64,000 nt of DNA from the NCBI GenBank assembly GCA_963822405.1, contig CAWGHH010000004.1, forward strand, positions 70,226 through 134,225, read 5' to 3'. The stretch is from Candidatus Uhrbacteria bacterium (GTDB taxonomy: Bacteria; Patescibacteriota; Patescibacteriia; UBA9934). Below, in pieces: positions 755 to 58,733 of the stretch (position 1 is the stretch's first letter; each line of letters begins with the position of its first letter). The notes beneath the pieces are model-generated. The model was not told the origin of the DNA. It saw only the letters and a program-made list of their open reading frames with translations, and searched no databases. The position numbers and the translations under genes are program-made.

Positions 755-784
755 GAGAGGGTCGACACAAAGGTCGACCCCTAC
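755..784. repeat. Family A palindromic element (GAGAGGGTCGAC-acaaag-GTCGACCCCTAC), intergenic rpsG/rpsL
   Basis: Perfect 8-bp arms containing SalI sites. Same 30-nt consensus as copies inside leuS and the rsmB-like gene. Confidence 0.8.
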
Positions 785-3706: not shown

Positions 3707-3735
3707 AAGGGTCGACGCATGGGTCGACCCCAACG
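3707..3735. repeat. Family A element (GGGTCGACgcatGGGTCGACCCC), 6 nt upstream of murA start
   Basis: Same sequence class as copies at 29993, 30719, 43655 and 57627. Confidence 0.8.
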
Positions 3736-4265: not shown

Positions 4266-4282
4266 AGTATTAAAGCTTGTAA

Positions 4283-4379
4283 GGTAAAAGAATATATTCG
4301 TCAAAATTTGAGTCGGACCCTCGGCTGAGCCTACGGGCAAGTTACCTCCTAAAAATTTTACCGAACATATTCTTTTACC
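4283..4379. repeat. Family C long hairpin with conserved loop core (expanded variant)
   Basis: Arms GGTAAAAGAATATATTCG / CGAACATATTCTTTTACC around AAATTTGAGTCGGA…TTACCTCCTAAAAATTT. Confidence 0.7.
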
Positions 4380-4455
4380 TTTGGATAGAGTACACGAGCT
4401 AGAAAAAAAGAGGAACCGCGCCCCAGGCATGCGAGCCCAGGAACGCGGTTTACGG

Positions 4456-5766
4456 CTAGCACTTCAAGCTGAAGCGCTCTTTCCAATACTCGTACAATTC
4501 ACGACGAACTTCCTGGTCCTCCCAATTAACCCCAAAGATTTCTCTATCCCAGTAGTAGTTCACGTGCGTGAGGAGCTGTTCCCCACGCCGAATACCGTGG
4601 TTCAAGTTATCCGTTGCGTACGCCTCGTTAATCCCGTCGCGCAACGTCGTCACCTTCTGTTCGACGAAGGACCGAATGATCCGATCTTCTTCATCGCGCG
4701 AGATTGTACCGATCAGCTTCACGTCCCAATAATCAATGTTTCGGTTAGGTTTCTTACTGGATTCTTCCTCGCTGCGAATGTGCTCAATGGCCAGTGGAGC
4801 CTCACCCCACAGCTTTTCGCACACGTAGGCAAAAAGGCGCAGAGCATCCTCACGTGTCGGAACACGAAGTTCTCCGTGCTCAAGCACTGCCGCCACAACG
4901 TAGAGTCCGCGTCGCGAATCTTTCACCACGGGATAACCGCTCTCAATGCCGATACACTCCCGCTCGTGCTTCATGGCTCGCGAGAACATGCGCTTACGCG
5001 GGTCATCACTCAAAACAAATTGCGTGAACCCGTTGTGTTTGATGATGCGACACGGAAACTCGGACATGACTACCCGTTGGTGACTCTCCGATTTCGCGCG
5101 CAGATCATTTGCCCACCGTTCGGCCTCTGCTTTATCAAATGTGACCCTTGGCTCCTCAATCAACCGACGTTGTTTACTTGAGTTCAGTCGAAACACAGCG
5201 TAGACCGTAGCCGAATCCTCGGCAAACAACCGATTCGCTGCCAAGTTCTCAAGCATAATGACGTCTTTCGAGATCCACCCGTCAGGATCTACAAGTTCGA
5301 GCTGGAACAACTGCGACGCGATGGCGAAGTTCCGTCGAGCCTCAAAAGCCGCCTGACACGCGAGTGTATCCGTACGTTTTTCCATCTTTTGCCAGAGGTA
5401 CATGAGACCAACCGGGTCAAGCTCGTTCGCGCTCGTGTTGTACGTACGCAAGGACAACGCCTTCGGAAAGAAATAATTTCCGATCAGATATTCCAGATAC
5501 AAGTCTGTGAGCTTAATTGCCTCAACAAACATGTCCCAGAATTTCTCAGCTCCAAGCGACGGGAGATCGATCTCGTCATTCGTTCGGTGTGCCCTCTTCC
5601 AGGCGTGATAAAACGCACCCTTTATACCCGCACCTTTCTTCCGTCGTGCCTCGTACAAACGCAAGATCTTATCGAGCAACTCCATTTCTCGGGCGATCGG
5701 TAAGAATTGAAGCACCTCAGCGGGACAAAAAACGCAATCCGTACGCAGAACCATGACAACCCCCAA
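4456..5766 (-). CDS. Hypothetical protein (436 aa), no recognisable family
   Basis: Long clean ORF. Arg/Glu/Trp-rich soluble protein. C-terminal R-x6-H (RRGEQLLTH) is weakly HEPN-like. Confidence 0.6.
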   Translation of the reverse strand: MGVVMVLRTDCVFCPAEVLQFLPIAREMELLDKILRLYEARRKKGAGIKGAFYHAWKRAHRTNDEIDLPSLGAEKFWDMFVEAIKLTDLYLEYLIGNYFFPKALSLRTYNTSANELDPVGLMYLWQKMEKRTDTLACQAAFEARRNFAIASQLFQLELVDPDGWISKDVIMLENLAANRLFAEDSATVYAVFRLNSSKQRRLIEEPRVTFDKAEAERWANDLRAKSESHQRVVMSEFPCRIIKHNGFTQFVLSDDPRKRMFSRAMKHERECIGIESGYPVVKDSRRGLYVVAAVLEHGELRVPTREDALRLFAYVCEKLWGEAPLAIEHIRSEEESSKKPNRNIDYWDVKLIGTISRDEEDRIIRSFVEQKVTTLRDGINEAYATDNLNHGIRRGEQLLTHVNYYWDREIFGVNWEDQEVRRELYEYWKERFSLKC

Positions 5767-5805: not shown

Positions 5806-5838
5806 CAAATAGCAAAAGACGGCGCAAGTGCGCCGCCT
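5806..5838. terminator. Rho-independent terminator downstream of ndk (minus strand)
   Basis: GGCGCAcTTGCGCC hairpin followed on the minus strand by GTCTTTTGCTATTT. Confidence 0.5.
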
Positions 5839-5840
5839 TC

Positions 5841-5890
5841 AACCACCCTGAACCCCCTTTGGTCCCCCTGGGAGGGGGAAGCGAACCAAC
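5841..5890. repeat. Family B C5/G5 hairpin element, intergenic (downstream of ndk)
   Basis: aaccaccctgaaCCCCCtttggtCCCCCtgggaGGGGGaagcgaacc. Confidence 0.75.
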
Positions 5891-5892
5891 CA

Positions 5893-6360
5893 TTAGATGC
5901 CTTCGCCGAAGTGGTAGATGTCGGTCAATTTGTCGTAGGCGAAGACTTCTTCTGGTTTAAAGAAACGATTAATTTCAACGGTAGCTGCTTCAACGGAGTC
6001 AGAAGCGTGAACCATGTTTGATGGGACGTTCATGGAAAGATCAGCACGGATTGTACCTGCATCAGCTACGCGTGGATTTGTAGCACCGACGATTACGCGG
6101 ACTGTTTCAATGACATCCAAGCCCTCAAGCACCATAGCGATCACCGGGGTCTGCATCATGAACTTTAGAAGTGCCGGAAAGAAAGACTTTTCCTTCAAGT
6201 GGCCGTAGTGCTCAGTGAGTGTAGCTTCATCAAGATGAGCCATCTTCATAGCAACAATCTTCAAACCCTTACGCTCAAAGCGACCAATCACTTCACCGGC
6301 CAATTCACGCTGCAATGCATCTGGTTTAATGAGCACTAATGTCTTTTGAACTTCAGCCAT
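5893..6360 (-). CDS. ndk: Nucleoside diphosphate kinase
   Basis: MAEVQKTLVLIKPDALQRELAGEVIGRFERKGLKIVAMK… is typical NDK. Start at ATG 6358-6360. The longer ORF extension overlaps the upstream gene. Confidence 0.9.
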   Translation of the reverse strand: MAEVQKTLVLIKPDALQRELAGEVIGRFERKGLKIVAMKMAHLDEATLTEHYGHLKEKSFFPALLKFMMQTPVIAMVLEGLDVIETVRVIVGATNPRVADAGTIRADLSMNVPSNMVHASDSVEAATVEINRFFKPEEVFAYDKLTDIYHFGEGI

Positions 6361-6409
6361 AAAAAGTTTGTTTAATTTGCGTAGAAGATACGGGAGGCGG
6401 AAACGTTTG

Positions 6410-7321
6410 TCAAAAGTTGAATGAAGTAATTGAGGGTTCTCCACCGGTACTCGTAACCCTAATACTTCCAAGTTCATCGGTTCGATAAATAGTTGCACCA
6501 AATTTTTCTAGTCGAGTGATTGAATCTTCGTCGGGTAAACCGTATGAGTTTCCTGCGCCAACGGAAATTATCGCCGAGTCTGGGGTGATTGCTTGCAAGA
6601 GTTTTTCACTGGTTGACGTACGGCTGCCGTGGTGGCCAACTTTGAGAACGTCGATGTGACCCATTCGACCCCCCGCATTCAGGCCTGAACCCCCTTTGTC
6701 CCCCTGGAAGGGGGAAGAAGCGAGAAATGCGGCTTCCTGTGCAACACCGGCGTCGCCGGTGAGTAGCATCGTCGTGTCGCCGTAAGTAAGAAGGGCGACA
6801 ACGGAGCCGTCGTTAGCGTCGGACAGCAACGCGCCATCGTATGACTCATTCGGCCAAACGAAATCTAGTCGCGCTCCCCCGCCGAGATCATAAGTGTCGC
6901 CGGCCTTCAAGTGGAGCGCGTCGGGCGCGAGTTTTTCGTACTCATGAAACTCGGGTGTGCCATATCCTTGTCCGCTATCGGCCACCTGCGCAACACGGTA
7001 GCGCTCGAGTACCGGCACGAGACCCATAATGTGATCTGCGTGCGGGTGCGTGTCGATTACGAGGTCTATCGAGCTATCCCACGGCAACATCACACTGGCC
7101 AATTTTTCGAGAATTGACGTATCGGGACCGCCATCGATCAACACCTGCTTCTCGGGACCGTCAATGAATATAGCGTCGCCTTGGCCAACATCAAAAACAA
7201 ATACAGACAACTTTGCAGGTTCAAATAATTTGTCGTTCACGAGTTCAACTCGCCCAATCAAGATACCGACGATAATTATCGGAGTCAGGACTGCTAAAAT
7301 ATTTTTTTTCGAAATCTTCAT
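6410..7321 (-). CDS. ComEC C-terminal metallo-beta-lactamase domain protein, encoded as a separate gene
   Basis: VFDVGQGDAIFI…DTHPHADH…GHHGS MBL motifs. N-terminal TM. 4-nt overlap with the upstream comEC channel gene. Contains the family B repeat in-frame. Confidence 0.8.
   Translation of the reverse strand: MKISKKNILAVLTPIIIVGILIGRVELVNDKLFEPAKLSVFVFDVGQGDAIFIDGPEKQVLIDGGPDTSILEKLASVMLPWDSSIDLVIDTHPHADHIMGLVPVLERYRVAQVADSGQGYGTPEFHEYEKLAPDALHLKAGDTYDLGGGARLDFVWPNESYDGALLSDANDGSVVALLTYGDTTMLLTGDAGVAQEAAFLASSPFQGDKGGSGLNAGGRMGHIDVLKVGHHGSRTSTSEKLLQAITPDSAIISVGAGNSYGLPDEDSITRLEKFGATIYRTDELGSIRVTSTGGEPSITSFNF
6674..6732. repeat. Family B element inside the ComEC-MBL gene, in-frame, flanked by 7-bp inverted repeat CCGCATT/AATGCGG
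   Basis: Encodes SSPFQGDKGGSGLNAGG. Confidence 0.75.
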
Positions 7322-8757
7322 AGGTTAATCGCAGCGAAAGGCAAGGCGGCCATGGCGTCGATGATCCGCAAGATGACGTCGAGGAAGAGCCAACCAGGAA
7401 GAACCAAACCCCCTTTTATTCCCCCTAAAAGGGGGAACCAAGTGAATACATGAACCAATACCCCGAATGTGCCGGTAGCCATGGCGTAAGGTAGAAACGG
7501 GAGGACGAGGAGGTTTGTCACGGGACCGATGATTGATAGCCGATGAAAACCGAAGATGATTACTGGCAAAGTTGCGAACGTGGCGGCGAGGGTGCAAGAG
7601 AGTGATTCGCGTAAACCAAAAGCTTCGGGGATCCATTCAAGTTTAGCAGCAATTGGTTTGGCAAACGCAATTAATCCGGTAGTCGACAAAACAGATAATT
7701 GAAAACCGGTATCGTCCCGCAGGATCCGGGGCTCGATCATGACCATGATGGCCGTTGTCAGCAACAGAGCATTTCGCGCCGAACTTTTGCGACCAAGCTG
7801 CGTCGCTGAAACTGCAATGGCGCCCATGATGCCGGCTCGTAAAACAGCACCGGACCCACCGGCAATAATCACAAACGAAGCAATCGCAAATAACACAAAC
7901 GGAAATGCATACTGTCGTCGGAGTCCCGCATAGATGAGGAACGCTAGCGCCAGCGAAGACACGAGCGCAACGTTGTATCCGCTGGCCGCAACTACATGCG
8001 ACGTACCCGTAGTAATGAATTTCTGTTTCCACTTATCGGAAAATGAATTGTCGCCTAGCAACAAACCGGCGAGTAATTGAGCGTGTGGCTCGCCGTACGT
8101 TCGACGAATTTCCCCCACCGCCTTCTCGTGAATCTTCCCAAGAATAACTTTCGGATTATTTACCTCTTCTCGCTTTAAAATAAATGGTTCACTTCTCGAA
8201 TAACACTGCGCATAAATACTTTTCGCCGCAAGATATCTGTCATATCTAAAACCATCGAGTGGCTCAGGCGCTTCAAGATCGCAATGAACGCCAACTCTGT
8301 CGCCGAGCTCACCGTGAGAATAGAGCGGGACGAAGGTGAGAATTTTGTCGCCAACTTGTTCGCCGTTCACAGCCAATCGTTCGAGCGTTAACGTCTCGCC
8401 TTTCTCGCCAACTGAGTGCGTCATGATGACGCCAGTAACGCTCGCATTTTTTGCGAGGTGAAAAGCGACGGAGTTGGTCGAAGGCGTTGCAAGGGAGTAA
8501 CGCCAGATGCCGAGAAGTGAGGAGAGGGTGAAGAGAGTGAGGAGAACCCCCTTGGTCCCCCTGGAAGGGGGAAGCGAACCACTCCTGACCACCGACTCCC
8601 CCGTAGCCCCCTCTTTGAAAGAGGGGGAGGATACCACCCAACCCACGGCGCAGACGCCGAAGAGAACCAAGACTGGCCAGCCGTAGGACGCAAAAGCGAC
8701 TCCGAAGAGGAGACCTGCGAGGATGCTCGTCAGGATTCTGCTCGGAGTCGCCTTCAT
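7318..8757 (-). CDS. comEC: Competence protein ComEC/Rec2 membrane channel domain (DUF4131 + competence domain)
   Basis: Polytopic membrane protein with ComEC-like sequence. GTG at 8760 or ATG at 8755-8757, overlapping the leuS TGA stop. Carries three family B repeats in-frame. Confidence 0.75.
   Translation of the reverse strand: MKATPSRILTSILAGLLFGVAFASYGWPVLVLFGVCAVGWVVSSPSFKEGATGESVVRSGSLPPSRGTKGVLLTLFTLSSLLGIWRYSLATPSTNSVAFHLAKNASVTGVIMTHSVGEKGETLTLERLAVNGEQVGDKILTFVPLYSHGELGDRVGVHCDLEAPEPLDGFRYDRYLAAKSIYAQCYSRSEPFILKREEVNNPKVILGKIHEKAVGEIRRTYGEPHAQLLAGLLLGDNSFSDKWKQKFITTGTSHVVAASGYNVALVSSLALAFLIYAGLRRQYAFPFVLFAIASFVIIAGGSGAVLRAGIMGAIAVSATQLGRKSSARNALLLTTAIMVMIEPRILRDDTGFQLSVLSTTGLIAFAKPIAAKLEWIPEAFGLRESLSCTLAATFATLPVIIFGFHRLSIIGPVTNLLVLPFLPYAMATGTFGVLVHVFTWFPLLGGIKGGLVLPGWLFLDVILRIIDAMAALPFAAINL
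7401..7440. repeat. Family B element inside comEC, in-frame (encodes FPLLGGIKGG)
   Basis: GAACCaaaCCCCCttttattCCCCCTaaaaGGGGGAACC, flanked by GAACC direct repeats. Confidence 0.75.
8544..8632. repeat. Two adjacent family B elements inside comEC, in-frame
   Basis: Encode SPSFKEGATGES and SLPPSRGTKGVL. Second copy contains the perfect palindrome CCCCCTCTTTgAAAGAGGGGG. Confidence 0.75.
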
Positions 8758-11150
8758 CACACTACGAAGTTCACGATTTTGTTTTTAACAACGATTGTCT
8801 TCTTTGGTTCACTGGTCAAAAACTTCTGCACGTTCTGATCGGCCTTCGCGACCGCAACCACTTCGTCGTCCGCAGAATCTGGGGGCACGGAGATTGTGCC
8901 GCGGAGTTTGCCGTTTACTTGAACAGAGATCGTTACGGCTTCGTCGACGAGTAAAGCAGGATCCACTCCAGGCCAAGCTTGCGCCTCTACAAATCCTTCA
9001 TGCCCAAGCTGTTCCCAAAGTTCGTTTGCGAGATGCGGAGCGAACGGCACCAATAGAAGAAGAAACTTTTCAAAACTTTCTTTTGAAACGCCTTTTTCCT
9101 GAGCCTCGTTCACAAAGATCATGAGGGAAGAGATCGCCGTATTGAAACGGAAACCGGCGATGTCGTCTGTGACTTTTTTGATGGTTTTATTCAATGTGCG
9201 ATCGATCGAGAGAGGGTCGACATTGAAGTCGACCCCTACGCGCTCGGATAACCTCGCGATCTTGTCCAAAAATCGACGAACGCCAATCACGCCATTTGTA
9301 TTCCATGGCACTGGCTCCTCAAATGGTCCCATGAACAACTCGTACACGCGCAAAGTATCCGCACCGAATTCTTTTACAATTTCGTCAGGGTTCACTACGT
9401 TACCTTTTGACTTACTCATCTTTGTTCCGTCCTCAGACATGATGAGGCCATGGGAATGGCGACGAACATATGGCTCACTCGCCGGCACCAATCCTTGATC
9501 AAATAAAAACTTGTTCCAGAACCGTGAGTACAACAAGTGAAGCGTGGTGTGCTCCATGCCACCATTATACAAGTCGACTGGCATCCAGTATTTAAGTGCT
9601 TCTTTCGACGCAAACGCGTTGTCATTATGCGGATCCGCGTAACGCAAGAAGTACCAGCTCGAGCCAGCCCAGTTAGGCATAGTGTCGGTTTCGCGCTTCG
9701 CCGGTCCTCCACATTGAGGACATGCTGTGTTCACAAATGACTCGATAGAAGCGAGAGGAGATTCGCCGTTGTCAGTTGGTTCGTAACGTTCGACTTGAGG
9801 GAGTTCCACGGGGAGTTGAGAGTCGGGAATCGCAACCCAACCACCCTGAGACTCCCCCGTAGCCCCCTCTTGGAAAGAGGGGGAATGTGCACCGTCCTGA
9901 TCACCCTGAGCACAATGCTCGCAGTAGACTAGGGGGATCGGCTCGCCCCAGTAGCGTTGACGGGAAAAGACCCAGTCGCGGAGTTTGAAGGTGGTTTTCT
10001 TAGTACCACCTGACTTAACTATGGCCTCGTCGAACGATACGAGTGGCTTATCGACAATTGACAACTCGAAGGTCTCGGCGAACGCTCGATCACGTTCATC
10101 GTGTTGCGGAACAGCCATAACTGCGCCGGTGCCATAATGGCCAAGTACGTAATCAGCAACCCAAACCGGAACTTTTTCACCGTTAAAAGGGTTGGTCACA
10201 AATGAACCAGTAAACACGCCGGTTTTTTCTTTCGTGTCGTCGCCACGTTCAATCTCTGTTTTCTTTTTTACATCCGCAAGATATTTCGCAACTGCCTTCT
10301 TCTGTTCATCGGTAGTTAGTTTCTCGACCAATGAATGTTCGGGAGCGAGAACCACATAAGTGACGCCATCGATCGTGTCGGGGCGGGTTGTAAATACCCG
10401 GAGGGGGCCGACATCGAAGTCGGCCCGTACGACCCCCTCTGCTCCCCCTAAAAGGGGGAAGGTGATTTCGGCGCCCTCGCTTCGGCCGATCCAGTCTTCC
10501 TGTTGCTTTTTAATCTTTGGCAAATAGTCGACGTCCTTAAGGTCGTCGATCAAACGGTCGGCATACTTGGTGATGGCAATCATCCACTGCTCCTTCTCGC
10601 GCTTTTCAACGGGTGTACCACAGCGTTCGCAGCAACCGCCGACAACTTCCTCGTTCGCCAAACCAATCTTGTCTTTAGGGCACCAGTTGATCATGGTCTT
10701 CGCTTTATAGGCGAGACCAGCTTTAAAAAACTGCAAAAACTGCCACTGCGTCCAACGATAATATTTTGGATCAGTTGTATTGATCTCCCTCGACCAGTCA
10801 AAACTAAAACCAATAGATTGAAGTTGGCGACGGAAATTATCGACGTTTGTCTTAGTGACAACGGCCGGATGAACACCCATCTTTATGGCGTAATTTTCCG
10901 TCGGCAATCCAAATGCGTCCCAACCCATTGGGAACAAAACATTTTTGCCTTCCATTCTTTTCTTTCGAGCGACAACATCAAGTGCGGTATAACTGCGCGG
11001 ATGACCCACGTGAAGTCCCTCGCCGGACGGATAAGGAAACTCGACCAAAACATAATACTTGTCTTGACCCGAATCCTTCGCGTGAAAAATGCCAGAATCT
11101 TCCCAACGCTTCTGCCACTTGGGATCAATCAAAGAATGGTTGTAGGACAT
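8757..11150 (-). CDS. leuS: Leucyl-tRNA synthetase
   Basis: Begins MSYNHSLIDPKWQKRWEDSGIFHAKDSGQDKYYVLVEFPYPSGEGLHVGHP with HIGH and KMSKS (KMSKSKGN) motifs. TGA stop. Contains two family A and two family B repeats in-frame. Confidence 0.95.
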   Translation of the reverse strand: MSYNHSLIDPKWQKRWEDSGIFHAKDSGQDKYYVLVEFPYPSGEGLHVGHPRSYTALDVVARKKRMEGKNVLFPMGWDAFGLPTENYAIKMGVHPAVVTKTNVDNFRRQLQSIGFSFDWSREINTTDPKYYRWTQWQFLQFFKAGLAYKAKTMINWCPKDKIGLANEEVVGGCCERCGTPVEKREKEQWMIAITKYADRLIDDLKDVDYLPKIKKQQEDWIGRSEGAEITFPLLGGAEGVVRADFDVGPLRVFTTRPDTIDGVTYVVLAPEHSLVEKLTTDEQKKAVAKYLADVKKKTEIERGDDTKEKTGVFTGSFVTNPFNGEKVPVWVADYVLGHYGTGAVMAVPQHDERDRAFAETFELSIVDKPLVSFDEAIVKSGGTKKTTFKLRDWVFSRQRYWGEPIPLVYCEHCAQGDQDGAHSPSFQEGATGESQGGWVAIPDSQLPVELPQVERYEPTDNGESPLASIESFVNTACPQCGGPAKRETDTMPNWAGSSWYFLRYADPHNDNAFASKEALKYWMPVDLYNGGMEHTTLHLLYSRFWNKFLFDQGLVPASEPYVRRHSHGLIMSEDGTKMSKSKGNVVNPDEIVKEFGADTLRVYELFMGPFEEPVPWNTNGVIGVRRFLDKIARLSERVGVDFNVDPLSIDRTLNKTIKKVTDDIAGFRFNTAISSLMIFVNEAQEKGVSKESFEKFLLLLVPFAPHLANELWEQLGHEGFVEAQAWPGVDPALLVDEAVTISVQVNGKLRGTISVPPDSADDEVVAVAKADQNVQKFLTSEPKKTIVVKNKIVNFVV
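9208..9239. repeat. Family A element inside leuS, in-frame (encodes GVDFNVDPL)
   Basis: GAGAGAGGGTCGACattgaaGTCGACCCCTAC within the leuS reading frame. Confidence 0.8.
9841..9910. repeat. Family B element inside leuS, in-frame (encodes SPSFQEGATGESQGG), bounded by 9-bp direct repeats CACCCTGAG
   Basis: CCCCCTCTTggAAAGAGGGGG core. Direct repeats at 9842-9850 and 9902-9910. Confidence 0.75.
10401..10463. repeat. Composite family A variant (GGGCCGACatcgaaGTCGGCCC) + family B element inside leuS, in-frame
   Basis: Encodes …RADFDVGPL… and …FPLLGGAEG… in LeuS. Adjacent CCCCCTAAAAGGGGG hairpin. Confidence 0.75.
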
Positions 11151-11526: not shown

Positions 11527-11588
11527 CGAATGTCCTCGTTAAAATTTGGAGTCGGATTACCTCCTGGCAAATTTTTCCGAGAACATTC
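11527..11588. repeat. Family C hairpin between the GDH-like gene and the rhodanese gene
   Basis: Arms CGAATGTCCTCG / CGAGAACATTCG around AAATTTgGAGTCGGATTACCTCCTggcAAATTTTT. Confidence 0.65.
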
Positions 11589-13579: not shown

Positions 13580-14512
13580 ATGAAAGACCCACTTCCAGCG
13601 GCACTACGCGAAAGGCTAATAAAACAATGGGGCACGGGAACCTATTCCGCCATGCTCCAGGCTTTTTCCGTTAACCGAAAACCAACTTTCCGCGTCAACA
13701 CATTAAAAGCCACGGACGAAGAAGTAATGAGCATTTTTCGTGATGAACAAATCATGTTCGAACGGATCAAAACCGTCCCTCACGCCTTCATGGTTAAGAA
13801 TTTAACGGATGACGAATTACTCGAGCGCCCCCTCACCAAAGAAGGGAAAATTTACATGCAGGGGGTTTCGTCGATGATTCCACCAATCGTTCTCCTTGAA
13901 GAGAGAGGGCCGACATCGAAGTCGGCCCCTACCACCGCGTTGCGGGTTCTTGATCTTTGCGCGGCGCCGGGATCGAAGACGACCGAGATGGCAATGATGA
14001 CAAATAACTCAACGGAAATTATTGCGACCGAGGATAACGAGGTACGTTTTCAAAAGCTCGAAAATACGATTCGGATACAAGGCGCAAAAGTTGACGCCCG
14101 ACATACGGATGGCACGCTTCTGCACAAAGAATTTCCGGAATATTTTGACAAGGTCTTGGTCGATGCTCCCTGCTCTGCTGAAGGTCGAATTAACATCAAT
14201 GAAAAACGGACTTTTGGCTATTGGTCAGAAAAAAATATTGTCGAGCATGCCAAACTCCAACGTCGGCTTCTACGAGCCGCTGTGAGCTGTCTCAAGCCCG
14301 GTGGAACACTCGTCTACTCTACCTGTACCCTTGCACCCGAAGAAAATGAAAAAATGGTCGAGTGGCTCATCACCGAGTTCCCCCAAATGAAACCCGCCGA
14401 AATCACACTCTCCCTCCAAAACATCAAAAAAACTGCTCACAAAACCATCACGATGTTGCCAGCCGAAAACATGGAGGGGTTCTTTGTGGCGAAACTGGTA
14501 AAGGCCTCATAG
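13580..14512 (+). CDS. 16S rRNA m5C methyltransferase, RsmB/RsmF (NOL1/NOP2/Sun) family
   Basis: LDLCAAPGSKT (SAM-binding) and DAPCSAEG / YSTCT catalytic Cys motifs. Family A repeat in-frame at 13901-13933. Confidence 0.8.
   Translation: MKDPLPAALRERLIKQWGTGTYSAMLQAFSVNRKPTFRVNTLKATDEEVMSIFRDEQIMFERIKTVPHAFMVKNLTDDELLERPLTKEGKIYMQGVSSMIPPIVLLEERGPTSKSAPTTALRVLDLCAAPGSKTTEMAMMTNNSTEIIATEDNEVRFQKLENTIRIQGAKVDARHTDGTLLHKEFPEYFDKVLVDAPCSAEGRININEKRTFGYWSEKNIVEHAKLQRRLLRAAVSCLKPGGTLVYSTCTLAPEENEKMVEWLITEFPQMKPAEITLSLQNIKKTAHKTITMLPAENMEGFFVAKLVKAS
13901..13933. repeat. Family A variant inside the rsmB-like gene, in-frame (encodes ERGPTSKSAPT)
   Basis: GAGAGAGGGCCGACatcgaaGTCGGCCCCTACC. Confidence 0.8.
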
Positions 14513-14525
14513 CCCAGAAGCGAAC

Positions 14526-14602
14526 GGGTAATGAGACATTATTCCCAAAAATTTGAGTCGGATTACCTCCTAAAAATTTTTAGAAACAATGTCTCATTAC
14601 CC
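14526..14602. repeat. Family C hairpin between convergent rsmB-like gene and 14666 ORF
   Basis: Arms GGGTAATGAGACATT / AATGTCTCATTACCC around AAATTTGAGTCGGATTACCTCCTAAAAATTT. Confidence 0.75.
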
Positions 14603-14665
14603 GAAAAGAAAAACCGTCCAAGCCACGAGGCTCGGACGGTCTGTTGCTGACGATGTACCTTGATG

Positions 14666-15479: not shown

Positions 15480-18400
15480 TCAACGGAATAACCTTGAAAT
15501 ATTAGAAAATACAGGGATAGGCGATGCCCAACCAACGAGCCCTTCGATGTATTGAATGGTAAACCGCAGGAAGCTAGCGATACGCTCCGCTAGGTCAGCG
15601 CGTTTTACAAGGTTTGCGGTGTCGACCGTCGACGTACCATCAAGTGGAGTCCCGACGGTTAGGCGTCCGAATGATGTTGGATCAAGATCGATAATATAGT
15701 CAGCCCAATGAGCTCCAAAGAGTGCAGCTGCCAGTTCCTCTGTTGGAACCCAGTGAATAATTGGATTATCAATCGTAGCTTCGACATCAAATGCGTACAC
15801 CCTGGTTGAACCTGGAGTTTTCAGGAGAACTGTGCCGGGTTTTGGTGGCATTGGCTTGCCGAGCGCGTAACTCAAGAGCTTTTCATTAGTAATAACTTTG
15901 ACCACAGAAAAATCCTTCGCATAAGTGAAGAACTCAACTGCGGTAATGAACGAATGACGCACATCATTTTCATCAACAAAATAGACGATGGACGAATCAG
16001 GCGTTCTGATAAAGTTATTGAAAGTTTGCTTGACTATAGGCACAACGACAGGCGGTTCAACAATCGGACCTGATCCGGGAGATATCTCACAACCCACGGA
16101 AAGCGTCACTGTGTCTGAAATTGCTAACGATGTCTCGCCTGTTGCTGACCTAAATTGCACCGTCACTATCTTTTCACCAGCTCCAGAAGAAAGTGCCCAG
16201 GGGAGAGTCATTGTTCGAATAAAAACTCCGGAACTATTCGTGGTCACCGTAACAGTTTCGTCCACAACAAACGGAATAAAACTGCCTCCATCAATACTGA
16301 CCGCCGTTGCATTAGCTGCTCGCATTGTTAAAATTACATCCGAAGAAGAAACACATTGAACTCCATTAGCAATAACAACGCTCACATCAGTCGGACTTTC
16401 GCTCACGGAAGATCCTTGACCGGCGAGTGTGAAGACAACGGAATCCACAGCTGGATGGCTAGCAACACTATCAGTTTCTAGCGTCACCGCCAGATCGATA
16501 TTTGAAGTGGTCGGCATGAATCCGCCGGTAAGCGACCAGTTGGTACGCTTAACTGCGCCCAGCACTGTCCCGGTCATCCGGTTATTCGTCGGCCCATTCT
16601 CAACTGCCAGTGAAATTGCTTCTGCGGGAGTGTTCGTAGGAGCCGGAGTCCACACGCTAGCATCGTTTCGATAATACCAATTACCGTTCACTCCCCCATG
16701 ATCAGTTGCCAGACTCGACGCTATAGTTCGCCAAGAAGTCCCGAACACCTTAAAACTTTGTCGAGCGTCAAAAGAAATTGAATAGTCAGCATTTCCCCCA
16801 TCAAGCGATTCGCTGACCGTTGCCGAACCAATTCTATTTGTTCCAGTGAAGTCTATATTCGAGGAAGCAGTAGTTAGTGTTGTGTAGTACTTACCGGCGG
16901 GAGCAGCGCCAATTATTAATTGATCCAACTCATTTGTAGGATAGGAATTGTAACTCCAGAACGTATCGCTGCTTTGTAGAGCAAATTGTAGGAGACCACT
17001 ACTCATAGGATACGTAGCCAAGCGATCGCCGGTATTCGCATCAAAAACAATGAGGCTCGCCGACTCCCCTCCAGGAGGCCCAAGCTCAACAGGAGAATAA
17101 CCAACGTACACCCTGCCTAAAACCGTATCAATATCAAGACCTTGAGCGTAAGTACCGGTATCATATGAAGCTAGAACGTTTCCCGTCGCGGCGTCAACTT
17201 TTACCAACGGATCAACGCCGTCAGCTTCAAATGCAGACAGCACCCAAATAATATTATTCGTTGCATCGAAGCGAATTGAGTCGTCCCCGCTATCCGCATA
17301 TCCAGGAATGGGGTATGTACTCGCTGATAGCGTTCCGTTCGCAAACGTCCCTGTAGTTGCCGAGAATTTATATAGAGCGGTACTAAAAGTATTGCCACCG
17401 GAAATCCAAACAGCGTGCTGAACGGAATCATAAACGATTCCGTTTGCCTCAATACCCAAAACGATCGTATTGATCACCGCTCCATTAGTCGGATTAATTC
17501 TGACGAGTTTACTTGAGGGATATGTGACAACCCAAATCTCATCAAGGTCTGGGTTATACACTACATCCCATGCATGACCAGAAACAGAGAATGAACTTGC
17601 TCCAAGCGTCCCGAACGCGTAGTTACCCGTTCCCGCATCAAACGCAACTAATTTGTTACTATCATAATCAGCAAACCAAAGCCTGTTTCGCGTCGGATCA
17701 ATGGCGAAATTATACGAAGAACCTGTCATTGATTTTCTCGCTACTTCAAGACCAGTCGCCATAGAAACCTCTACTAAAGCTGGAACACCGGCGTTGCCCA
17801 ACCAAATACGTCCATTTGTTTCATCAGCCAAAATTCCACCGTGCCCGGCGCCGGCCGACAAGAGATTCAAACTCCCAACGGAAATACGCGCGGTGCTACC
17901 ACCGAGTTGAGCGGCATCAACCAGCTCTGAGGTACATGCAATCTTCGTAACCGTAGCGTCAACAAGCGTGAGATATATTTGGTCAGGAGGCGTTATGCCG
18001 TCTGTAAGAAGCACTTGTCCGGTAGTAATCGGGTCTACCCGTAGAATCCGATAATCAACTCCGCCAACCGTCACCCTACAACCCGGCAAGATCTTAGTAC
18101 CGGCAAGACTTACCGCAGATCCGCCATTTGCCGTACGGAAAACACCCTCGCCCTGATTTGTCCGGTCAAACCACGCGACGGTGCCTTTTACATCTTCTTC
18201 CGTTAACATTGCGCCATTATCAAAATCAACTGTCATCAAATCCCGATCATCGTCTTCAGTAAAAAGAGAAACATCCACGGGGTTCAGAACCCCGTAAAGC
18301 GTGTCAGTACTAGTAGGAACAGCGAGGATGATGGAGGAAGCAATGCCTCCGTCATCCGCGGTGTCATCAACGCCCGTAACAGTCACAGTCTGTGGCGTAG

Positions 18401-19442
18401 CGTAATTTGACGAAGTAAAAACAAGAGAAGAAGGCGAGACGCTTGCCTCCGTAGAGTCCGATACCGATACTGGGATAGTCACGTTCGCTGTTGGCTCACC
18501 ACGAAGTGCCACAGTAAATGTTGCAGTCGCACCAGCCTCTGTTACGTTATTGGATGCTTGAGTAATCGCAAACCCCGGTTCGCCAAAACGAATATTTGTA
18601 TTATTTCCGTTGTTAATACATTGAGAATAACAATGGATTTGGCTCGTTCCGATGTTATTCACATCCGTAACATGAGCCGCGAACATCGCAAGAGCTCCTT
18701 GAAAATCCACACTCGCCTGAACCCCAGAAGAGCTACTAACAATTGTCAGCTTATTATCAACGGGCACATTATGGGTGCTGGCTAAAAGTCGTGTTGTGCC
18801 GAGCACTGTCGTGGTAAGGGACGCCGGCAACGTCAACGTCACATCAAGATTTGTTGTTGTCGCAATGTATAAATCATTAAACGTCGTAGCACCGGAAAGC
18901 GTCGGAGTAGCTCCGCTTAACTGCACCGTTCCGCTATTGTGCGCAAACGTTCCCGCTGAATGCGTAAAATTTCCGCCTATCAGCGTCGTACCGGACGAAG
19001 CCGTAAATACACCGCCAGAAAGTAAAAAGTTTGTGCCAACGGTGAGCGATTGACTCGACGCACCGAACGAACCATCAGCCTGAGAGAATGCCGCACTCGT
19101 CGTAAGCGATCTCGCGAGAGTAACGGTTCCCGTGTAACCAGCATTAATACTGACACTCGTAACAGTGCTGGTAAAACTCGCATCAGCCGTTGCATCTTTC
19201 GTCGAGGTTCCATCAAATACAACAGCGTCACCTGCGCCCGGTTCTACATCCCCCACCCAATTAGCGTCCTCACTCCAATCATTCGTAGCTCCCCCACCGT
19301 CCCAAGTTATTGTAGCTGCGTGAGCAGGTCTCAACAGCAATGAAACAATCAATGTGGGCACTGTGATGGCAACGAGAATCGGTAAGATGATTCTGTGCAA
19401 TCTATGATTTGTAAAAAAACTTCGCCGGTTGTTACTTGGCAT
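15480..19442 (-). CDS. Giant secreted surface protein (~1320 aa) with beta-propeller-like repeats and Thr/Gly-rich beta-rich regions
   Basis: Signal peptide MPSNNRRSFF…LIVSLLLRPAHA at ATG 19440-19442. NHL/YVTN-like repeats (IWVVTYPSSKLVRINPTNG, RLWFADYDSNKLVAFDAGTG). Upstream in-frame extension rejected because it overlaps rarA. Confidence 0.7.
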   Translation of the reverse strand: MPSNNRRSFFTNHRLHRIILPILVAITVPTLIVSLLLRPAHAATITWDGGGATNDWSEDANWVGDVEPGAGDAVVFDGTSTKDATADASFTSTVTSVSINAGYTGTVTLARSLTTSAAFSQADGSFGASSQSLTVGTNFLLSGGVFTASSGTTLIGGNFTHSAGTFAHNSGTVQLSGATPTLSGATTFNDLYIATTTNLDVTLTLPASLTTTVLGTTRLLASTHNVPVDNKLTIVSSSSGVQASVDFQGALAMFAAHVTDVNNIGTSQIHCYSQCINNGNNTNIRFGEPGFAITQASNNVTEAGATATFTVALRGEPTANVTIPVSVSDSTEASVSPSSLVFTSSNYATPQTVTVTGVDDTADDGGIASSIILAVPTSTDTLYGVLNPVDVSLFTEDDDRDLMTVDFDNGAMLTEEDVKGTVAWFDRTNQGEGVFRTANGGSAVSLAGTKILPGCRVTVGGVDYRILRVDPITTGQVLLTDGITPPDQIYLTLVDATVTKIACTSELVDAAQLGGSTARISVGSLNLLSAGAGHGGILADETNGRIWLGNAGVPALVEVSMATGLEVARKSMTGSSYNFAIDPTRNRLWFADYDSNKLVAFDAGTGNYAFGTLGASSFSVSGHAWDVVYNPDLDEIWVVTYPSSKLVRINPTNGAVINTIVLGIEANGIVYDSVQHAVWISGGNTFSTALYKFSATTGTFANGTLSASTYPIPGYADSGDDSIRFDATNNIIWVLSAFEADGVDPLVKVDAATGNVLASYDTGTYAQGLDIDTVLGRVYVGYSPVELGPPGGESASLIVFDANTGDRLATYPMSSGLLQFALQSSDTFWSYNSYPTNELDQLIIGAAPAGKYYTTLTTASSNIDFTGTNRIGSATVSESLDGGNADYSISFDARQSFKVFGTSWRTIASSLATDHGGVNGNWYYRNDASVWTPAPTNTPAEAISLAVENGPTNNRMTGTVLGAVKRTNWSLTGGFMPTTSNIDLAVTLETDSVASHPAVDSVVFTLAGQGSSVSESPTDVSVVIANGVQCVSSSDVILTMRAANATAVSIDGGSFIPFVVDETVTVTTNSSGVFIRTMTLPWALSSGAGEKIVTVQFRSATGETSLAISDTVTLSVGCEISPGSGPIVEPPVVVPIVKQTFNNFIRTPDSSIVYFVDENDVRHSFITAVEFFTYAKDFSVVKVITNEKLLSYALGKPMPPKPGTVLLKTPGSTRVYAFDVEATIDNPIIHWVPTEELAAALFGAHWADYIIDLDPTSFGRLTVGTPLDGTSTVDTANLVKRADLAERIASFLRFTIQYIEGLVGWASPIPVFSNISRLFR

Positions 19443-19470
19443 ATTAGGCCAAGTATAGCAAACTCTGAGT

Positions 19471-20727
19471 ATGGATCTCTTTGAGACGCAACTTAAAACA
19501 AACCTTCCCTCTACTCCCCTGGCCGAACGGATGCGTCCGCGCACGCTTGAGGAATTCTTTGGGCAATCAAATATTGTCGGCGAAGGAAAATATTTGCGGC
19601 TCATGATCGAGCAGGACAATCTCCCATCACTCATCTTTTGGGGACCGCCAGGAGTTGGTAAGACCACGCTCGCCCAAATCATCGCCAAGATGACTAAGGC
19701 TCGCTTCCTGCCACTAAGCGCGGTATCAGGCGGAGTAAAGGATGTACGCGACGTCATCAAGGACGCGGAAGAACGCCGAAAGTTTTACGGCGAACGAACT
19801 ATTCTCTTTGTCGACGAAATCCACAGGTTCAACAAATCACAACAAGATGCATTCTTGCCTGCTGTCGAAAAAGGAATCATCACCCTTATCGGGGCAACCA
19901 CAGAAAATCCGTCTTTCGAAATCAATTCAGCGCTTCTCTCGCGTGCTCGAGTGATTGTACTTGAGCGACTCAATGAATCAGAACTCGAAAATGTTATCCG
20001 ACGAGCTATAACAGACAAAGAAAATGGCCTCGGCCAAGAACCAATTAGCGTAGACGACGAAACAATTACTGAGTTGGCTAATTTGGCGAATGGAGATGCA
20101 AGAAATGCACTGAATACATTGGAGATATCCACCAAAATATCCCCACTTGTGGATAATAAAATTGCCATTACTAAAGATGTGCTGGCTCAGGCGCTACAAC
20201 GCACGCATTTGTTTTATGATCGAGCCGGTGAAGAACACTACAACATTATTTCGGCGCTACATAAATCCATGCGTGGAAGTGATGCGAATGCTGCGCTGTA
20301 CTGGCTCGGCCGAATGCTTGAAGCCGGTGAAGATCCACTATACGTGGCTCGCCGACTTGTTAGATTCGCGTCAGAAGACATCGGTCTCGCCGATCCGCAA
20401 GCACTTGTCCAAGCAGTCACAGCATTTCAAGCCTCCCACATGCTTGGTCTACCAGAGTGCAATGTCATCCTAGCTCAATGCGTTGCATATTTGTCGAACG
20501 CCCCGAAATCTAACGCTCTTTACGAGGCATACGGTAAAGTCCAAGAAGATATCCGCAATCTCCCAAACGAACCAGTCCCTCTCCACATTCGCAATGCCCC
20601 GACTAAACTCATGAAAAATTTGGACTACGGCAAAGGCTACAAGTACACACCGACGTTCAAGAAAAAAGAAGACGCTAAACAAGACTATTTGCCGGAGAAA
20701 CTTAAAAAAAGAAAATATCTAACATAA
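19471..20727 (+). CDS. rarA: Replication-associated recombination protein A (AAA+ ATPase)
   Basis: GPPGVGKTTLAQIIA Walker A, ILFVDEIHRFNKSQQDAFLP Walker B and sensor. RarA/MgsA C-terminal region. Confidence 0.9.
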   Translation: MDLFETQLKTNLPSTPLAERMRPRTLEEFFGQSNIVGEGKYLRLMIEQDNLPSLIFWGPPGVGKTTLAQIIAKMTKARFLPLSAVSGGVKDVRDVIKDAEERRKFYGERTILFVDEIHRFNKSQQDAFLPAVEKGIITLIGATTENPSFEINSALLSRARVIVLERLNESELENVIRRAITDKENGLGQEPISVDDETITELANLANGDARNALNTLEISTKISPLVDNKIAITKDVLAQALQRTHLFYDRAGEEHYNIISALHKSMRGSDANAALYWLGRMLEAGEDPLYVARRLVRFASEDIGLADPQALVQAVTAFQASHMLGLPECNVILAQCVAYLSNAPKSNALYEAYGKVQEDIRNLPNEPVPLHIRNAPTKLMKNLDYGKGYKYTPTFKKKEDAKQDYLPEKLKKRKYLT

Positions 20728-22261: not shown

Positions 22262-24574
22262 ACCTTCCCAGATGCCACCGGTACAATCGCGCTGACCTCT
22301 GATCTCACATCTTCCGGCGGTTGGACAGATGGCGGAACGGACGTGCTCTTAACGACCTCGACGGATAACGTCGGCATAGGTGGCGCTTCTCTCGGCAAGT
22401 TATCAGTTGATGGCGACACTGACGAAATCCAACTCCTCATCCAAGGCAACGGAACGCAAACATCTAATCTCGCTGTCTTCGAAAATAGTTCCGGAACTGA
22501 TCTCGTGACCATCTCCAATACTGGACTACTCACTTCAAACTCATGGTCAGACAACACAAACACCATTTCTACATTTGGCGGGCGAACAACTTTTAGAAAA
22601 GCTTCGGCCGGAGTTACAGAATTTGTAGTTAGTCCGAGTGGATCACAAGCATATGACACTGCTGTGTTGAAAATTTCCGGCAGTGACTATGGCGCAGACC
22701 AAACAAACAATTGGGGTATGCTGTTTGATAACTTTGGCTCAAACGGAGCTACCGGATTCACTCTTTCAAACATGGCCAATGCCGGATTATTAACAATGTC
22801 TAATAGCGGAAGTACAACAGGCTATCATGACTTCGTTCTTGGTATTCAAAATGGAACAGGTGCCGAGTCAGCAGTAGTAGAAGGCATTCGTCTTGATTCA
22901 GCGGCTACACCAGCAGTAGACTTTTTCGTCGACAAAGTCATCATCACCTCTGGCACGGGAAACATTTCAACAACTGGTGACATCGCGGTAAACGGCGGAG
23001 ATGTAACCTCGACCAGCACTTTGAACCTAACATCAGCAACCTCAAGTGCGATCACCCTTGATTCTGGTACGACAGGTACGATCAACATCGGTACTGGAGC
23101 CTCCGGCAAGTCGATCAACATCGGCACGGACAACAGCAACGCCGATACGATTGGAATTGGTTCGGCTTTAGATACTTTGAGTATTGCCGCTACCACTTTT
23201 ACTACAACACTCACCACAACGAGCAGCGCCGCTTTTGCATCATCGACTACAAACAGTGACGTTATCGCCATTAAACCACAATCCGGCACAGCTACCACAA
23301 CCTATACTGGAACGATCACTTCAGCTGATCTTACAGCTGCCCGAACCTGGACATTGCCAGATGCCACCGGAACAATCGCGCTTACATCCGACATCGCTGG
23401 AGCCTTTGGCTGGACGGATGGCGGAACAGATGTAACGCTCACAACCTCTACAGATAATGTCGGAATCGGTGGCGCGTCACTCGGCAAACTATCAGTTGAC
23501 GGTGACACGGACGAGATCCAATTGTTAGTCCAAGGCAACGGAACGCAAACTTCTAATCTCGCTGTCTTCGAGAATAGTTCCGGCACGGATCTTGTCACCA
23601 TCTCAAATGCCGGCTTGCTCACCTCGAACTCATGGTCAGACAATACAAACACCATTTCTACTTTCGGTGGTCGCACAACCTTCAGAAAAGCTTCAGCTGG
23701 AGTAACGGAGTTTGTAGTCAGCCCAAGCGGAACACAGAGCTGGGACACTGCGGTACTAAAAATATCTGGAAGTGACTATGGCGCAGATCAAACAAACCAA
23801 TGGGGAATGCTTTTTGATAACTTCGGCTCAAGTGGAGCTGGTGGTTTTAGCCTTACCAACATGGCTTATGCGGGATTATTAACCATGTCCAACAGCGGAG
23901 GCACCACCGGCTACCATGACTTGGTCTTTGGTGTGCAAAATGGAACCGGCGCTGAGTCGGCAGTAGTCGAAGGCATCCGTCTTGATTCAGCGGCCACACC
24001 AGCCGTAAATTTCTTCGTCGATAAAGTCATCATCACTTCTGGTACAGGAGACATTTCAACTACTGGCGACATCGCAGTGAATGGAGGCGACGTGACATCA
24101 ACCGGCGCGCTCAATGTGACGTCTGCCACTTCGAACGCCTTGACACTCGATTCCGGCACGACGGGTACGGTCAATATCGGCACAGGAACTTCCGGTAAAA
24201 CAATCAACATCGGCACGAGCAACTCTAACGCTGACACCATCGCAATCGGTTCTGCGCTTGATACTCTCTCAATTTCTTCCTCTGCCTTTGCAGTCTCTAC
24301 CGCGGGCGTTGCCTCTGGACTCACCGGGCTTACCTCAACGGGAAACCTCACCTTCACCGGTGCAAATATTACTGGCGCTTCCCCACTTGTATTTGATGGG
24401 GCCACCGCTGATGCCGTGAAAACAACTTTTGCAATTACAGATCCAATACTCATCAGCAAAATCATAACGTTCCCTAACGCAACAGGCACCGTTGCTCTAA
24501 CGTCAGACTTAGCGATTGCTGGCGGTTCGAGCCGACGGCGGAACAGACATAACGCTCACAACCTCAACCGATAA
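22262..24574 (+). CDS. Giant surface protein, middle segment (same frame as 21749..22261)
   Basis: Continuous homology to tandem ~385-aa modules. Ends through a 1-nt frameshift near 24528. Confidence 0.65.
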   Translation, partial: TFPDATGTIALTSDLTSSGGWTDGGTDVLLTTSTDNVGIGGASLGKLSVDGDTDEIQLLIQGNGTQTSNLAVFENSSGTDLVTISNTGLLTSNSWSDNTNTISTFGGRTTFRKASAGVTEFVVSPSGSQAYDTAVLKISGSDYGADQTNNWGMLFDNFGSNGATGFTLSNMANAGLLTMSNSGSTTGYHDFVLGIQNGTGAESAVVEGIRLDSAATPAVDFFVDKVIITSGTGNISTTGDIAVNGGDVTSTSTLNLTSATSSAITLDSGTTGTINIGTGASGKSINIGTDNSNADTIGIGSALDTLSIAATTFTTTLTTTSSAAFASSTTNSDVIAIKPQSGTATTTYTGTITSADLTAARTWTLPDATGTIALTSDIAGAFGWTDGGTDVTLTTSTDNVGIGGASLGKLSVDGDTDEIQLLVQGNGTQTSNLAVFENSSGTDLVTISNAGLLTSNSWSDNTNTISTFGGRTTFRKASAGVTEFVVSPSGTQSWDTAVLKISGSDYGADQTNQWGMLFDNFGSSGAGGFSLTNMAYAGLLTMSNSGGTTGYHDLVFGVQNGTGAESAVVEGIRLDSAATPAVNFFVDKVIITSGTGDISTTGDIAVNGGDVTSTGALNVTSATSNALTLDSGTTGTVNIGTGTSGKTINIGTSNSNADTIAIGSALDTLSISSSAFAVSTAGVASGLTGLTSTGNLTFTGANITGASPLVFDGATADAVKTTFAITDPILISKIITFPNATGTVALTSDLAIAGGSSRRRNRHNAHNLNR

Positions 24575-45978: not shown

Positions 45979-45981
45979 GAA

Positions 45982-46068: not shown

Positions 46069-46073
46069 TGACG

Positions 46074-58730: not shown

Positions 58731-58733
58731 TGC

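Follow-up and report, generated by a model that had tools for sequence, protein, structure and literature searches.

GTAG-tagged repetitive extragenic palindromes (REPs) have stems of 5-13 bp and loops of 2-20 nt (PMC3733652) and are presumably moved on single-stranded DNA (ssDNA) by the REP-associated tyrosine transposase (RAYT), a Y1/HUH enzyme cleaving at the tag (PMC3733652; PMC2817692), these REPs and the RAYT/TnpA-REP transposases being the subject of Nunvar et al. 2010 (PMC2817692). Units lying inside genes are a recognised minority in the published REP families (PMC3733652), and Di Nocera et al. 2013 (PMC3733652) catalogued such intragenic REPs in several species, among other places in the genes for DNA polymerase I and tRNA pseudouridine synthase. 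The Rickettsia palindromic elements (RPEs) are selfish palindromes found in frame in functional protein genes of a reduced genome (PMC3733652, PMC1779305), and the short RPE-4 and RPE-6 belong to a sister group tagged with CGTC and not with GTAG (PMC3733652). For Patescibacteria, no REP- or RPE-type palindromes were reported in the literature searched. Here we describe a family of seven short C/G-rich hairpin elements in a 64-kb stretch (hereafter the window, GC 49%) of a Patescibacteria (candidate phyla radiation, CPR) genome, most of which lie in frame in comEC, leuS and a metallo-beta-lactamase-fold (MBL) gene, and whose best reading is that of a REP/RPE-like family, thus a known class that is new for Patescibacteria.

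All seven elements share one layout (a run of five C, 4-7 nt, then CCCCCT-loop-AGGGGG-A), and they span positions 5853-10459, all on the + strand. Matches to the pattern CCCCCN{4,7}CCCCCTN{3,9}AGGGGGA start at 5853, 6690, 7409, 8547, 8598, 9854 and 10433, and three listings (all C5/G5 runs, a regular-expression scan and a separate pattern search) agreed on these seven sites, at or within a few bases of where a preliminary description, made from the sequence alone, had placed them. Chance matches amounted to 0.00 in 100 dinucleotide-preserving shuffles against 7 observed, and the pattern was absent from the remaining ~59 kb of the window and from the ~4 kb past its right edge that an independent 9.2-kb assembly with gyrA adds to the DNA of this genome covered here. 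Three subtypes can be distinguished, with 94-97% identity between the copies of a subtype. Subtype A (5853, 6690, 8547; CCCCC-TTGGT-CCCCCTGGAAGGGGG-AAGCGAACC) reaches 94% identity over 35 nt, subtype B (7409, 10433) consists of CCCCCTAAAAGGGGG with the upstream C5, and the two copies of subtype C (8598, 9854; ACTCCCCC-GTAG-CCCCCTCTTkGAAAGAGGGGGA), which differ at 1 nt, carry GTAG directly before a 9-bp stem. In all seven copies the stems measure 6-10 bp and the loops 3-7 nt; the best fold of the 7409 copy uses the outer C5 in a 10-bp stem (CCCCCTTTTA/TAAAAGGGGG), and the comEC C copy has flanking modules of the GGTGG type (SSPSFKEGATGES) and a hairpin of -9.5 kcal/mol (z = -2.7). Folding as single-stranded DNA gave -7.4 to -9.5 kcal/mol over the family with z = -0.6 to -2.9 against shuffles, modest scores that make the fold alone unremarkable for such C/G-rich sequence.

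Six of the seven copies are coding, all in frame within intact open reading frames (ORFs) as the preliminary description had held, and they encode Gly/Ser/Pro-rich loops; the peptides that it quoted are correct, except that the second FPLLGG copy (leuS B) reads FPLLGGAEGV and does not end in KGG. The A copies of comEC (8547) and of the MBL gene are read in different frames. The seventh is non-coding, with the stop codon of ndk on one side and a terminator-like hairpin on the other. In the mRNA sense, the hairpin stands 5' of the G5 run at 10 of 11 loci (our own count). GC skew is uniformly negative on the + strand and the tagged strands of the two hairpin families in the window (the second is treated below) point opposite ways, so that we draw no clean lagging-strand rule.

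The same elements recur in unrelated genes of another genome. The scan for the GTAG subtype covered one genome per species, and its results stand for what is among the matches listed. The related metagenome-assembled genome (MAG) SO_2017_GW1_41, to which the loci L002 (leuS), L073 (IscU-like) and L104 (pheT) all belong, holds at least three dispersed C copies on two contigs. The frame used in leuS and comEC is also that of the pheT copy (RSPSFQEGATGESQGG), and the copy in the NifU/IscU-like gene has the opposite orientation and 1.5 tandem units. Altogether, the two genomes have the same ~45 nt in five or more unrelated genes, plus one 3' untranslated region (UTR), which rules out both native coding sequence and protein-level convergence.

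We compared the window's own locus (W) by codon alignment with the syntenic loci L001, L002/L003, L228, L229, L230, L232 and L234, the LeuS of L001 being 82% and that of L002/L003 70% identical to that of W. Such a comparison of ComEC and LeuS orthologues had been proposed in the preliminary description, and sites at the comEC N-terminus and both leuS sites prove to be empty in some relatives. The MBL copy is a clean extra segment of 19 aa/57 nt (6665-6721), missing from L002, L228 and L229, and the comEC N-terminus has 29 aa (C and A copies) in W against an 8-aa loop in L228 and L229, with the same helices. In leuS, site 1 (after EI.F) is empty in L001 and L228, is occupied in L230 by a B copy identical at 29 of 30 nt, and holds in L002 only a hairpin of the other family (GTAG-GGGTCGA...). 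Site 2, where W has ~25 extra codons compared to L001, is empty in L001 and L230; it holds in L002 a C copy with 44 consecutive identical nt, and in L229 a diverged C copy (CTAC to TTAA). Note that insertion boundaries are uncertain by 1-2 codons. Of the three insertions claimed for comEC, the N-terminal C and A copies hold, and the C-terminal one (7409) is not a clean insertion, since it occupies a variable loop in which L002 holds a decayed copy at the same place, L228 and L229 are 4-6 aa shorter and have no hairpin, and L001 has equal length with unrelated sequence. Several copies are common to orthologous sites in relatives, thus not all of them are recent. These comparisons show that the elements are multi-copy dispersed repeat DNA, absent from orthologous sites in relatives; the earlier view that a dispersed repeat family entered coding DNA is therefore borne out, with the same elements in unrelated genes and presence or absence differing between relatives.

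The explanation that we favour, and hold to be rather probable, is that these are small non-autonomous REP-type palindromes in Patescibacteria, which survive mainly as in-frame insertions in protein surface loops. Each element would combine a tag with a GC-rich stem-loop and with short modules at the ends, and an HUH/Y1 enzyme (of RAYT or IS200/IS605 type) would recognise the hairpin with its 5' tag (GTAG in subtype C) and copy it from ssDNA; we infer such HUH-type mobilisation for the elements of W, and copying of this kind should leave no target duplication and should entail a strand bias. Selection would then remove each copy that breaks the frame or the fold, and a copy in a gene would persist, decay, or be refreshed or exchanged by recombination, either between copies or between lineages through homologous recombination of gene segments. 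Coding density is high in this genome, with very little intergenic DNA, and it is because almost no intergenic space is available that the elements would be found mainly in frame in genes.

In the preliminary description, the elements were held to target coding DNA while preserving the frame. Subtype A has no stop codon in any of the six frames and is used in two of them, and in the orientation in which subtype C occurs, none of its three frames is closed. In the AlphaFold model of LeuS (54 homologues, mean predicted local distance difference test score, pLDDT, 85.5), pLDDT falls below 50 only at residues 236-246 and 419-433, which are the insert regions, the low alignment depth at these columns contributing to the low values. 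With open frames, dense coding and LeuS inserts that are predicted to be disordered, the survival of tolerated in-frame insertions suffices, and frame preservation is best explained by selection on random insertions, with no need of a frame-sensing mechanism or of targeting.

Concerning the class, the family resembles GTAG-REPs in that both have units of 20-45 nt with a GC-rich stem of 6-10 bp and a short loop, grouped or in tandem, and no target duplication, and in both, in-frame copies 'decorate' housekeeping proteins. The unpaired GTAG 5' of the stem is shared by subtype C, in which it adjoins a stem of 9 bp closed by a loop of 3 nt, at 8603-8606 and 9859-9862 and in all copies of L002, L073 and L104. 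The family differs from GTAG-REPs in being intragenic at six of seven copies and not mostly extragenic and downstream of ORFs, in the extra C5 run before the tag, in having in the 64 kb no RAYT gene of the kind that REPs flank, and in its host, Patescibacteria being outside the phyla listed for tagged REPs (PMC3733652). The single extragenic copy, from stop codon to terminator, is in a typical REP position. Like the Rickettsia RPEs, the window elements are palindromes in frame in functional genes, in tolerated protein regions; they differ in host and in their size of 35-60 nt, and probably have unrelated sequences, and we do not claim RPE membership. RPE-1, for its part, is ~100-150 bp long, and it is the longer RPEs that give the classic example of palindromes in frame. 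With the ends of IS200/IS605 insertion sequences and with palindrome-associated transposable elements (PATEs), the family shares sub-terminal hairpins recognised on ssDNA, the lack of target duplication and the strand bias, and a C5-GTAG-C5 hairpin stands at the 3' end of a TnpB-like ORF of Prochloron; however, the window elements have no distinct left and right ends, the window has neither tnpA nor tnpB, and no conserved target motif of 4-5 nt is separable from the elements' own ends. This Prochloron hairpin (708-734 of L006, MAG OZ240666.1) lies in the 3' end of a TnpB/IS605 OrfB-like ORF (83-757), with a second TnpB-like ORF starting nearby, and links the motif to the ends of cyanobacterial IS200/IS605-type elements.

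A repeat of Lysobacteraceae (agcaaatCCCCCGTAGCCCCCTTTTTCAAAGGGGGcaaagc, with flanks of the (a)agc(a)a type) is abundant in the listed genomes of Pseudoxanthomonas, Lysobacter, Luteimonas and Thermomonas (loci L004-L122), makes up most of the matches listed for the GTAG subtype and has the layout of subtype C. Compared to it in Pseudoxanthomonas, Lysobacter and Luteimonas, the identical CCCCC-GTAG-CCCCCT..loop..AGGGGG layout and the high copy number are alike, and the differences are its own loop and flanks (agcaaat...caaagc), a C and not an A after G5, and the high-GC gammaproteobacterial hosts. A relationship to the GTAG repeats known from Stenotrophomonas is probable, and since the motif is short, its layout and that of subtype C could be convergent or reflect similar enzyme recognition. 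A metagenome scan for the A and B subtypes gave 105 loci with GC of 0.35-0.71, mostly intergenic repeats of unrelated organisms; the A/B layout is thus widespread, without showing who the relatives of W are. Some of these matches are in frame, namely in PolA (L206), which parallels the intragenic REP precedent, in a penicillin-binding protein (PBP) transglycosylase and in a cysteine desulfurase.

Repeat DNA of this kind explains why some housekeeping proteins of CPR bacteria (LeuS, PheT, ComEC, IscU, MBL) have odd inserts rich in Gly, Ser and Pro, which alignment and structure prediction should not take for lineage-specific functional motifs. If the REP-type explanation holds, it would also extend REP/RPE-type selfish palindromes to Patescibacteria, where, with scarce intergenic DNA, persistence would be mainly inside genes. 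Moreover, the two LeuS loops with their many independent occupants offer a tractable case to separate target preference, selection and recombination.

Several results weigh against this explanation. Subtypes A and B are without GTAG, their tags being TGGT, TTGT, TATT and TGCT, and Pfam revealed no Y1/HUH or other transposase among the 54 ORFs of the window. Searches by tblastn with approximate RAYT/IS200 probes, a weak test, found nothing in the relatives' loci and gave only two weak matches, one in the Prochloron TnpB neighbourhood and one to an unrelated transporter. The copies are clustered, seven in 4.6 kb and none in 59 kb (chance of such clustering in 64 kb ~1e-6 by our own rough calculation), whereas REPs are usually scattered through a genome in tens to thousands of copies, and some filled sites resemble the replacement of a few codons and not a clean insertion. 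Finally, copies at orthologous sites have changed far less than the sequence on either side, which would not be predicted if an old insertion simply decayed neutrally. Indeed, the site 2 copies of W and L002 agree at 44/44 nt against 75% leuS identity (P ~3e-6; against the local identity of 85%, P ~8e-4), the site 1 copies of W and L230 at 29/30 nt against 71% (P ~5e-4), and third positions of the codons flanking the orthologous copies are ~50% identical.

The least improbable of the alternatives, although we consider it unlikely, is that the elements are fossil repeats that entered long ago, were inherited vertically and spread only by homologous recombination (natural transformation), with no ongoing transposition, their identity resulting from gene conversion or constraint. 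The absence of a transposase in the window and the orthologous copies common to W, L002 and L229 or to W and L230 agree with it, as does the mosaic structure of leuS between W, L001 and L002, W being nearer to L002 at aa 20-60, 160-200 and 433-640 and nearer to L001 at aa 260-400 and 720-797. In addition, carriers at site 2 share host-like CxxCA residues beside the hairpin peptide even where they are nested among CEKDGW/CEVDGW relatives (P0030 compared to P0037; P0033). Both patterns imply that homologous exchange of gene patches between lineages contributes, and the mosaic, as read from the sequences, suggests that this exchange is frequent between co-occurring CPR lineages. Recombination of this kind nevertheless leaves unexplained why the same 40-45 nt stand in leuS, comEC, pheT, the IscU-like gene and a spacer, since the initial spread needs a copy mechanism, and why subtype A occurs in two reading frames.

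A broader reading emerges from the LeuS homologues. Among 120 of them, many lineages have peptides of the hairpin type in these same two loops (FPLLGG.EGV, FPLLTKEGAKGR, FPLLFKEGARGRS, LPPEKGGVGG, LPLTKGESEGV, TPSSEEGVKGES), the DNA of two such homologues confirmed the layout as hairpin, 4-5 nt and G-run, and in a neighbour-joining tree the carriers are scattered among close non-carriers (P0031/P0022 are 94% and P0030/P0037 93% identical). It is a rather doubtful but conceivable generalisation that a CPR-wide superfamily of the form 'C5 hairpin + G5' repeatedly occupies the same two LeuS loops, and ComEC loops as well, in near-constant orientation and with near-invariant copies. Were it true, one would have to think of site-specific homing by an ssDNA enzyme or of a selected hairpin function in DNA or mRNA (pausing, protein-binding site), as random insertion followed by filtering would not be expected to give this pattern. 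Hot spots, conservation, mosaic and orientation together leave room for homing, gene conversion or selected hairpin function. The best LeuS relatives carry the names 'Patescibacteria group bacterium' or 'Candidatus Uhrbacteria'. Note that the LeuS of this clade is insertion-prone in other ways: many homologues (P0012, P0047, P0049, P0056, P0089 and others in the set) have a NUDIX domain at about residue 365, and one has an alpha/beta-hydrolase domain after the CxxC knuckle.

The hairpins might also be functional cis-elements, kept for a role in DNA or mRNA (protein binding, mRNA stability, translation pause or ribosome binding) with the protein inserts as a by-product. This we judge improbable, even if conservation is far higher in orthologous copies than in the codons that flank them, the orientation is biased relative to transcription, and the neighbouring GGGTCGAC-family hairpins keep their pairing by compensatory changes (W, L001, L002). 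The layout before start codons in the metagenome locus L164, with the second G5 resembling a Shine-Dalgarno sequence, points the same way, but such placement is found in only 12 of 101 metagenome matches. Furthermore, close relatives are without elements at every site, the stems are short with the z-scores given above, and no Rfam family was matched in the window (two tRNAs aside) or in 20 metagenome loci.

As for L164 itself (metagenome contig Ga0247727_10020112), C5-N-C5T..AG5 occurs at 1036, 5623, 6222, 7980, 9042 and 9082, the six copies lying in a co-directional gene row, most of them where two genes meet; in the one such place examined, 4-5 nt separate the second G5 from the ATG that follows, like a mobile cassette of hairpin plus ribosome-binding site. 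We considered a Shine-Dalgarno cassette as a general explanation and rejected it: it fits L164, and a start codon within 15 nt was found only in the 12 matches mentioned. In the window, the most likely start of the 436-aa ORF that lies downstream of ndk is the ATG of MVLRTD, before which there is a GGGGG run (window 5754-5766; GGGGG at 5760-5764, CCCCC on the + strand), so that a G5 run may act in a Shine-Dalgarno-like manner in the organism of W.

The preliminary description had seen in the elements something like a MITE, a miniature transposable element with inverted repeats. A classical MITE has terminal inverted repeats and is moved in trans by a DDE transposase, by cut-and-paste or replicatively, with target-site duplications, and its published size is 70-300 bp (PMC3733652). 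The elements share with MITEs such as Correia/NEMIS and Nezha that they are small, non-autonomous and multi-copy, and that some can be read through in frame, and direct repeats are indeed visible by some copies (CACCCTGAG twice at 9841-9910; GAACC at 7401 and 8544). However, these repeats recur at unrelated loci, and the CACCCTGAG module in another genome too, so that they are parts of the element or boundaries of tandem units and not target duplications. Thus, CTCAGGGTG/TCAGGGTGG also follows the C element in pheT and in the leuS of L002, where part of the CTCAGGGTG 3' module is duplicated again; in the IscU-like gene the module precedes the element, as TCAGGACGGGTGG; and it follows the intergenic A copy, reading AACCACCCTGA on the + strand. 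Written as in the mRNA, the C element has the approximate form (TCAGG)AYGGGYGGGCGYT, CCCCCTCTTTCCAAGAGGGGG, CTAC, GGGGGAGTC, TCAGGGTGG, and the supposed 9-bp duplication CTCAGGGTG in leuS is its 3' module plus an upstream remnant of the same module. Likewise, the flank AACCACCCTGA is truly common to the intergenic A copy and the leuS copy, as had been observed, and is the element's own 3' module. GAACC...GAACC is found in three A copies (5853, 8547 and, degenerate, 6690) and is simply the A consensus. The inverted repeat CCGCATT/AATGCGG, taken earlier as a sign of transposition, is present at one copy only (6672/6727), with one arm in the insert and the other in the host, and has a chance of roughly 1% per copy by our own estimate. 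Among the copies compared, the central hairpin was the only inverted repeat of the element, with no terminal ones of 15-30 bp, and no target-site duplication was specific to a locus. With elements several times shorter than MITEs and no DDE or other transposase in the window, a MITE is a very improbable identification.

DNA uptake sequences occur about once per kb genome-wide and arise by point mutation. That the elements are such sequences for the ComEC competence machinery, as their presence in and around comEC and the presumed dependence of CPR bacteria on DNA uptake could suggest, is hardly credible, as they are insertions and pass from seven in 4.6 kb to none in 59 kb. That the GC-rich homopolymer hairpins come from a chimeric assembly or from a sequencing artefact, for which the short-read origin of the MAG and a window LeuS protein recorded from one contig only might speak, has a practically negligible probability given that all six coding copies are in frame without stop (for random-length junk (1/3)^6, ~0.001, by our own calculation), that two independent assemblies of one relative, L002 (JGI/NCBI) and L003 (ENA), hold the same leuS-site element, and that related inserts occur in many independently assembled LeuS genes.

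Table. Positions of the C5/G5 elements, their host and neighbouring genes, and other hairpins of the window
Feature	Positions	Strand	Details
A-type copy, the only non-coding one, ndk 3' UTR	5841..5888	+	AACCACCCTGA + A + CCCCC-TTTGGT-CCCCCTGGGAGGGGG-AAGCGAACCA
A-type copy with extra G-run/TTCAGGCCTGAA tail, MBL gene	6665..6724	+	core 6690-6715; encodes ASSPFQGDKGGSGLNAGGR
B-type copy, comEC C-terminal loop	7409..7440	+	peptide FPLLGGIKGG
A-type copy, comEC loop after second N-terminal hydrophobic helix	8547..8580	+	peptide SLPPSRGTKGV
C-type copy, comEC, 13 nt from the A copy	8582..8645	+	ACTCCCCC-GTAG-CCCCCTCTT-TGA-AAGAGGGGG-A
C-type copy, leuS site 2, after CxxC knuckle (HSPSFQEGATGES)	9839..9917	+	CCCTGAG end modules
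B-type copy, leuS site 1, entry to CP1 editing domain	10428..10460	+	peptide PLLGGAEGV
Hairpin like an intrinsic terminator, with T-run	5815..5840	-	ends ndk transcript just downstream of the A-type copy
ndk	5893..6360	-	Pfam NDK, E = 2.8e-51; intergenic copy downstream of its stop codon (5893)
MBL gene (ComEC C-terminal-like)	6410..7321	-	Pfam Lactamase_B; hosts one copy
comEC	7318..8760	-	Pfam DUF4131 + Competence domains; hosts three copies
leuS	8757..11150	-	hosts two C5/G5 copies and two GGGTCGAC-family hairpins
Second-family hairpin	759-780		
Second-family hairpin	3709-3730		
Second-family hairpin	9214-9235		
Second-family hairpin	10405-10426		
Second-family hairpin	13907-13928		
Second-family hairpin	29994-30015		
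Second-family hairpin	30722-30743		
Second-family hairpin	43656-43677		
Second-family hairpin	57628-57649		
Long gene-boundary hairpin	4281-4381		
Long gene-boundary hairpin	11542-11578		
Long gene-boundary hairpin	14525-14603		
Long gene-boundary hairpin	45981-46069		
Long gene-boundary hairpin	56041-56121		
Long gene-boundary hairpin	58642-58732		

The genes around the copies (ndk, the MBL gene, comEC and leuS) follow one another in the same direction on the minus strand. A second hairpin family, GT(A/T)G-GGG(T/C)CGAC-N6-GTCG(A/G)CCC, is also GTAG-tagged and is spread over the whole window with nine copies, seven of them in frame within ORFs by the ORF calls used (leuS twice, RsmB, a 1922-aa ORF, a 168-aa ORF, TruB and a 107-aa ORF without Pfam match). 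A hairpin of the other family (10401-10434) is abutted by the B copy of leuS site 1. Of the second-family copies in leuS, L001 and L002 both have that of 9214 at the corresponding site and L002 has that of 10405, all stem changes being compensatory.

Large ORFs without Pfam match (1426, 743, 1922, 534 and 2057 aa) lie at 15480-19760, 22343-30284 and 47941-55591; those at 22-30 kb and 49-55 kb hold internal repeats (families D1-D6, D10 and D14), and these repeat-bearing ORFs are probably CPR surface proteins. Finally, the six long gene-boundary hairpins have stems of 25-35 bp of differing sequence around a conserved loop, AAATTTGAGTCGGAkTACCTCCTAAAAATTT, which reads TTAGGAGGTAATCCGACTC on the other strand with a perfect Shine-Dalgarno-like AGGAGGT and has no Rfam match; they may be a terminator or a regulatory motif that has not yet been described, or else belong to a further family of repeats.

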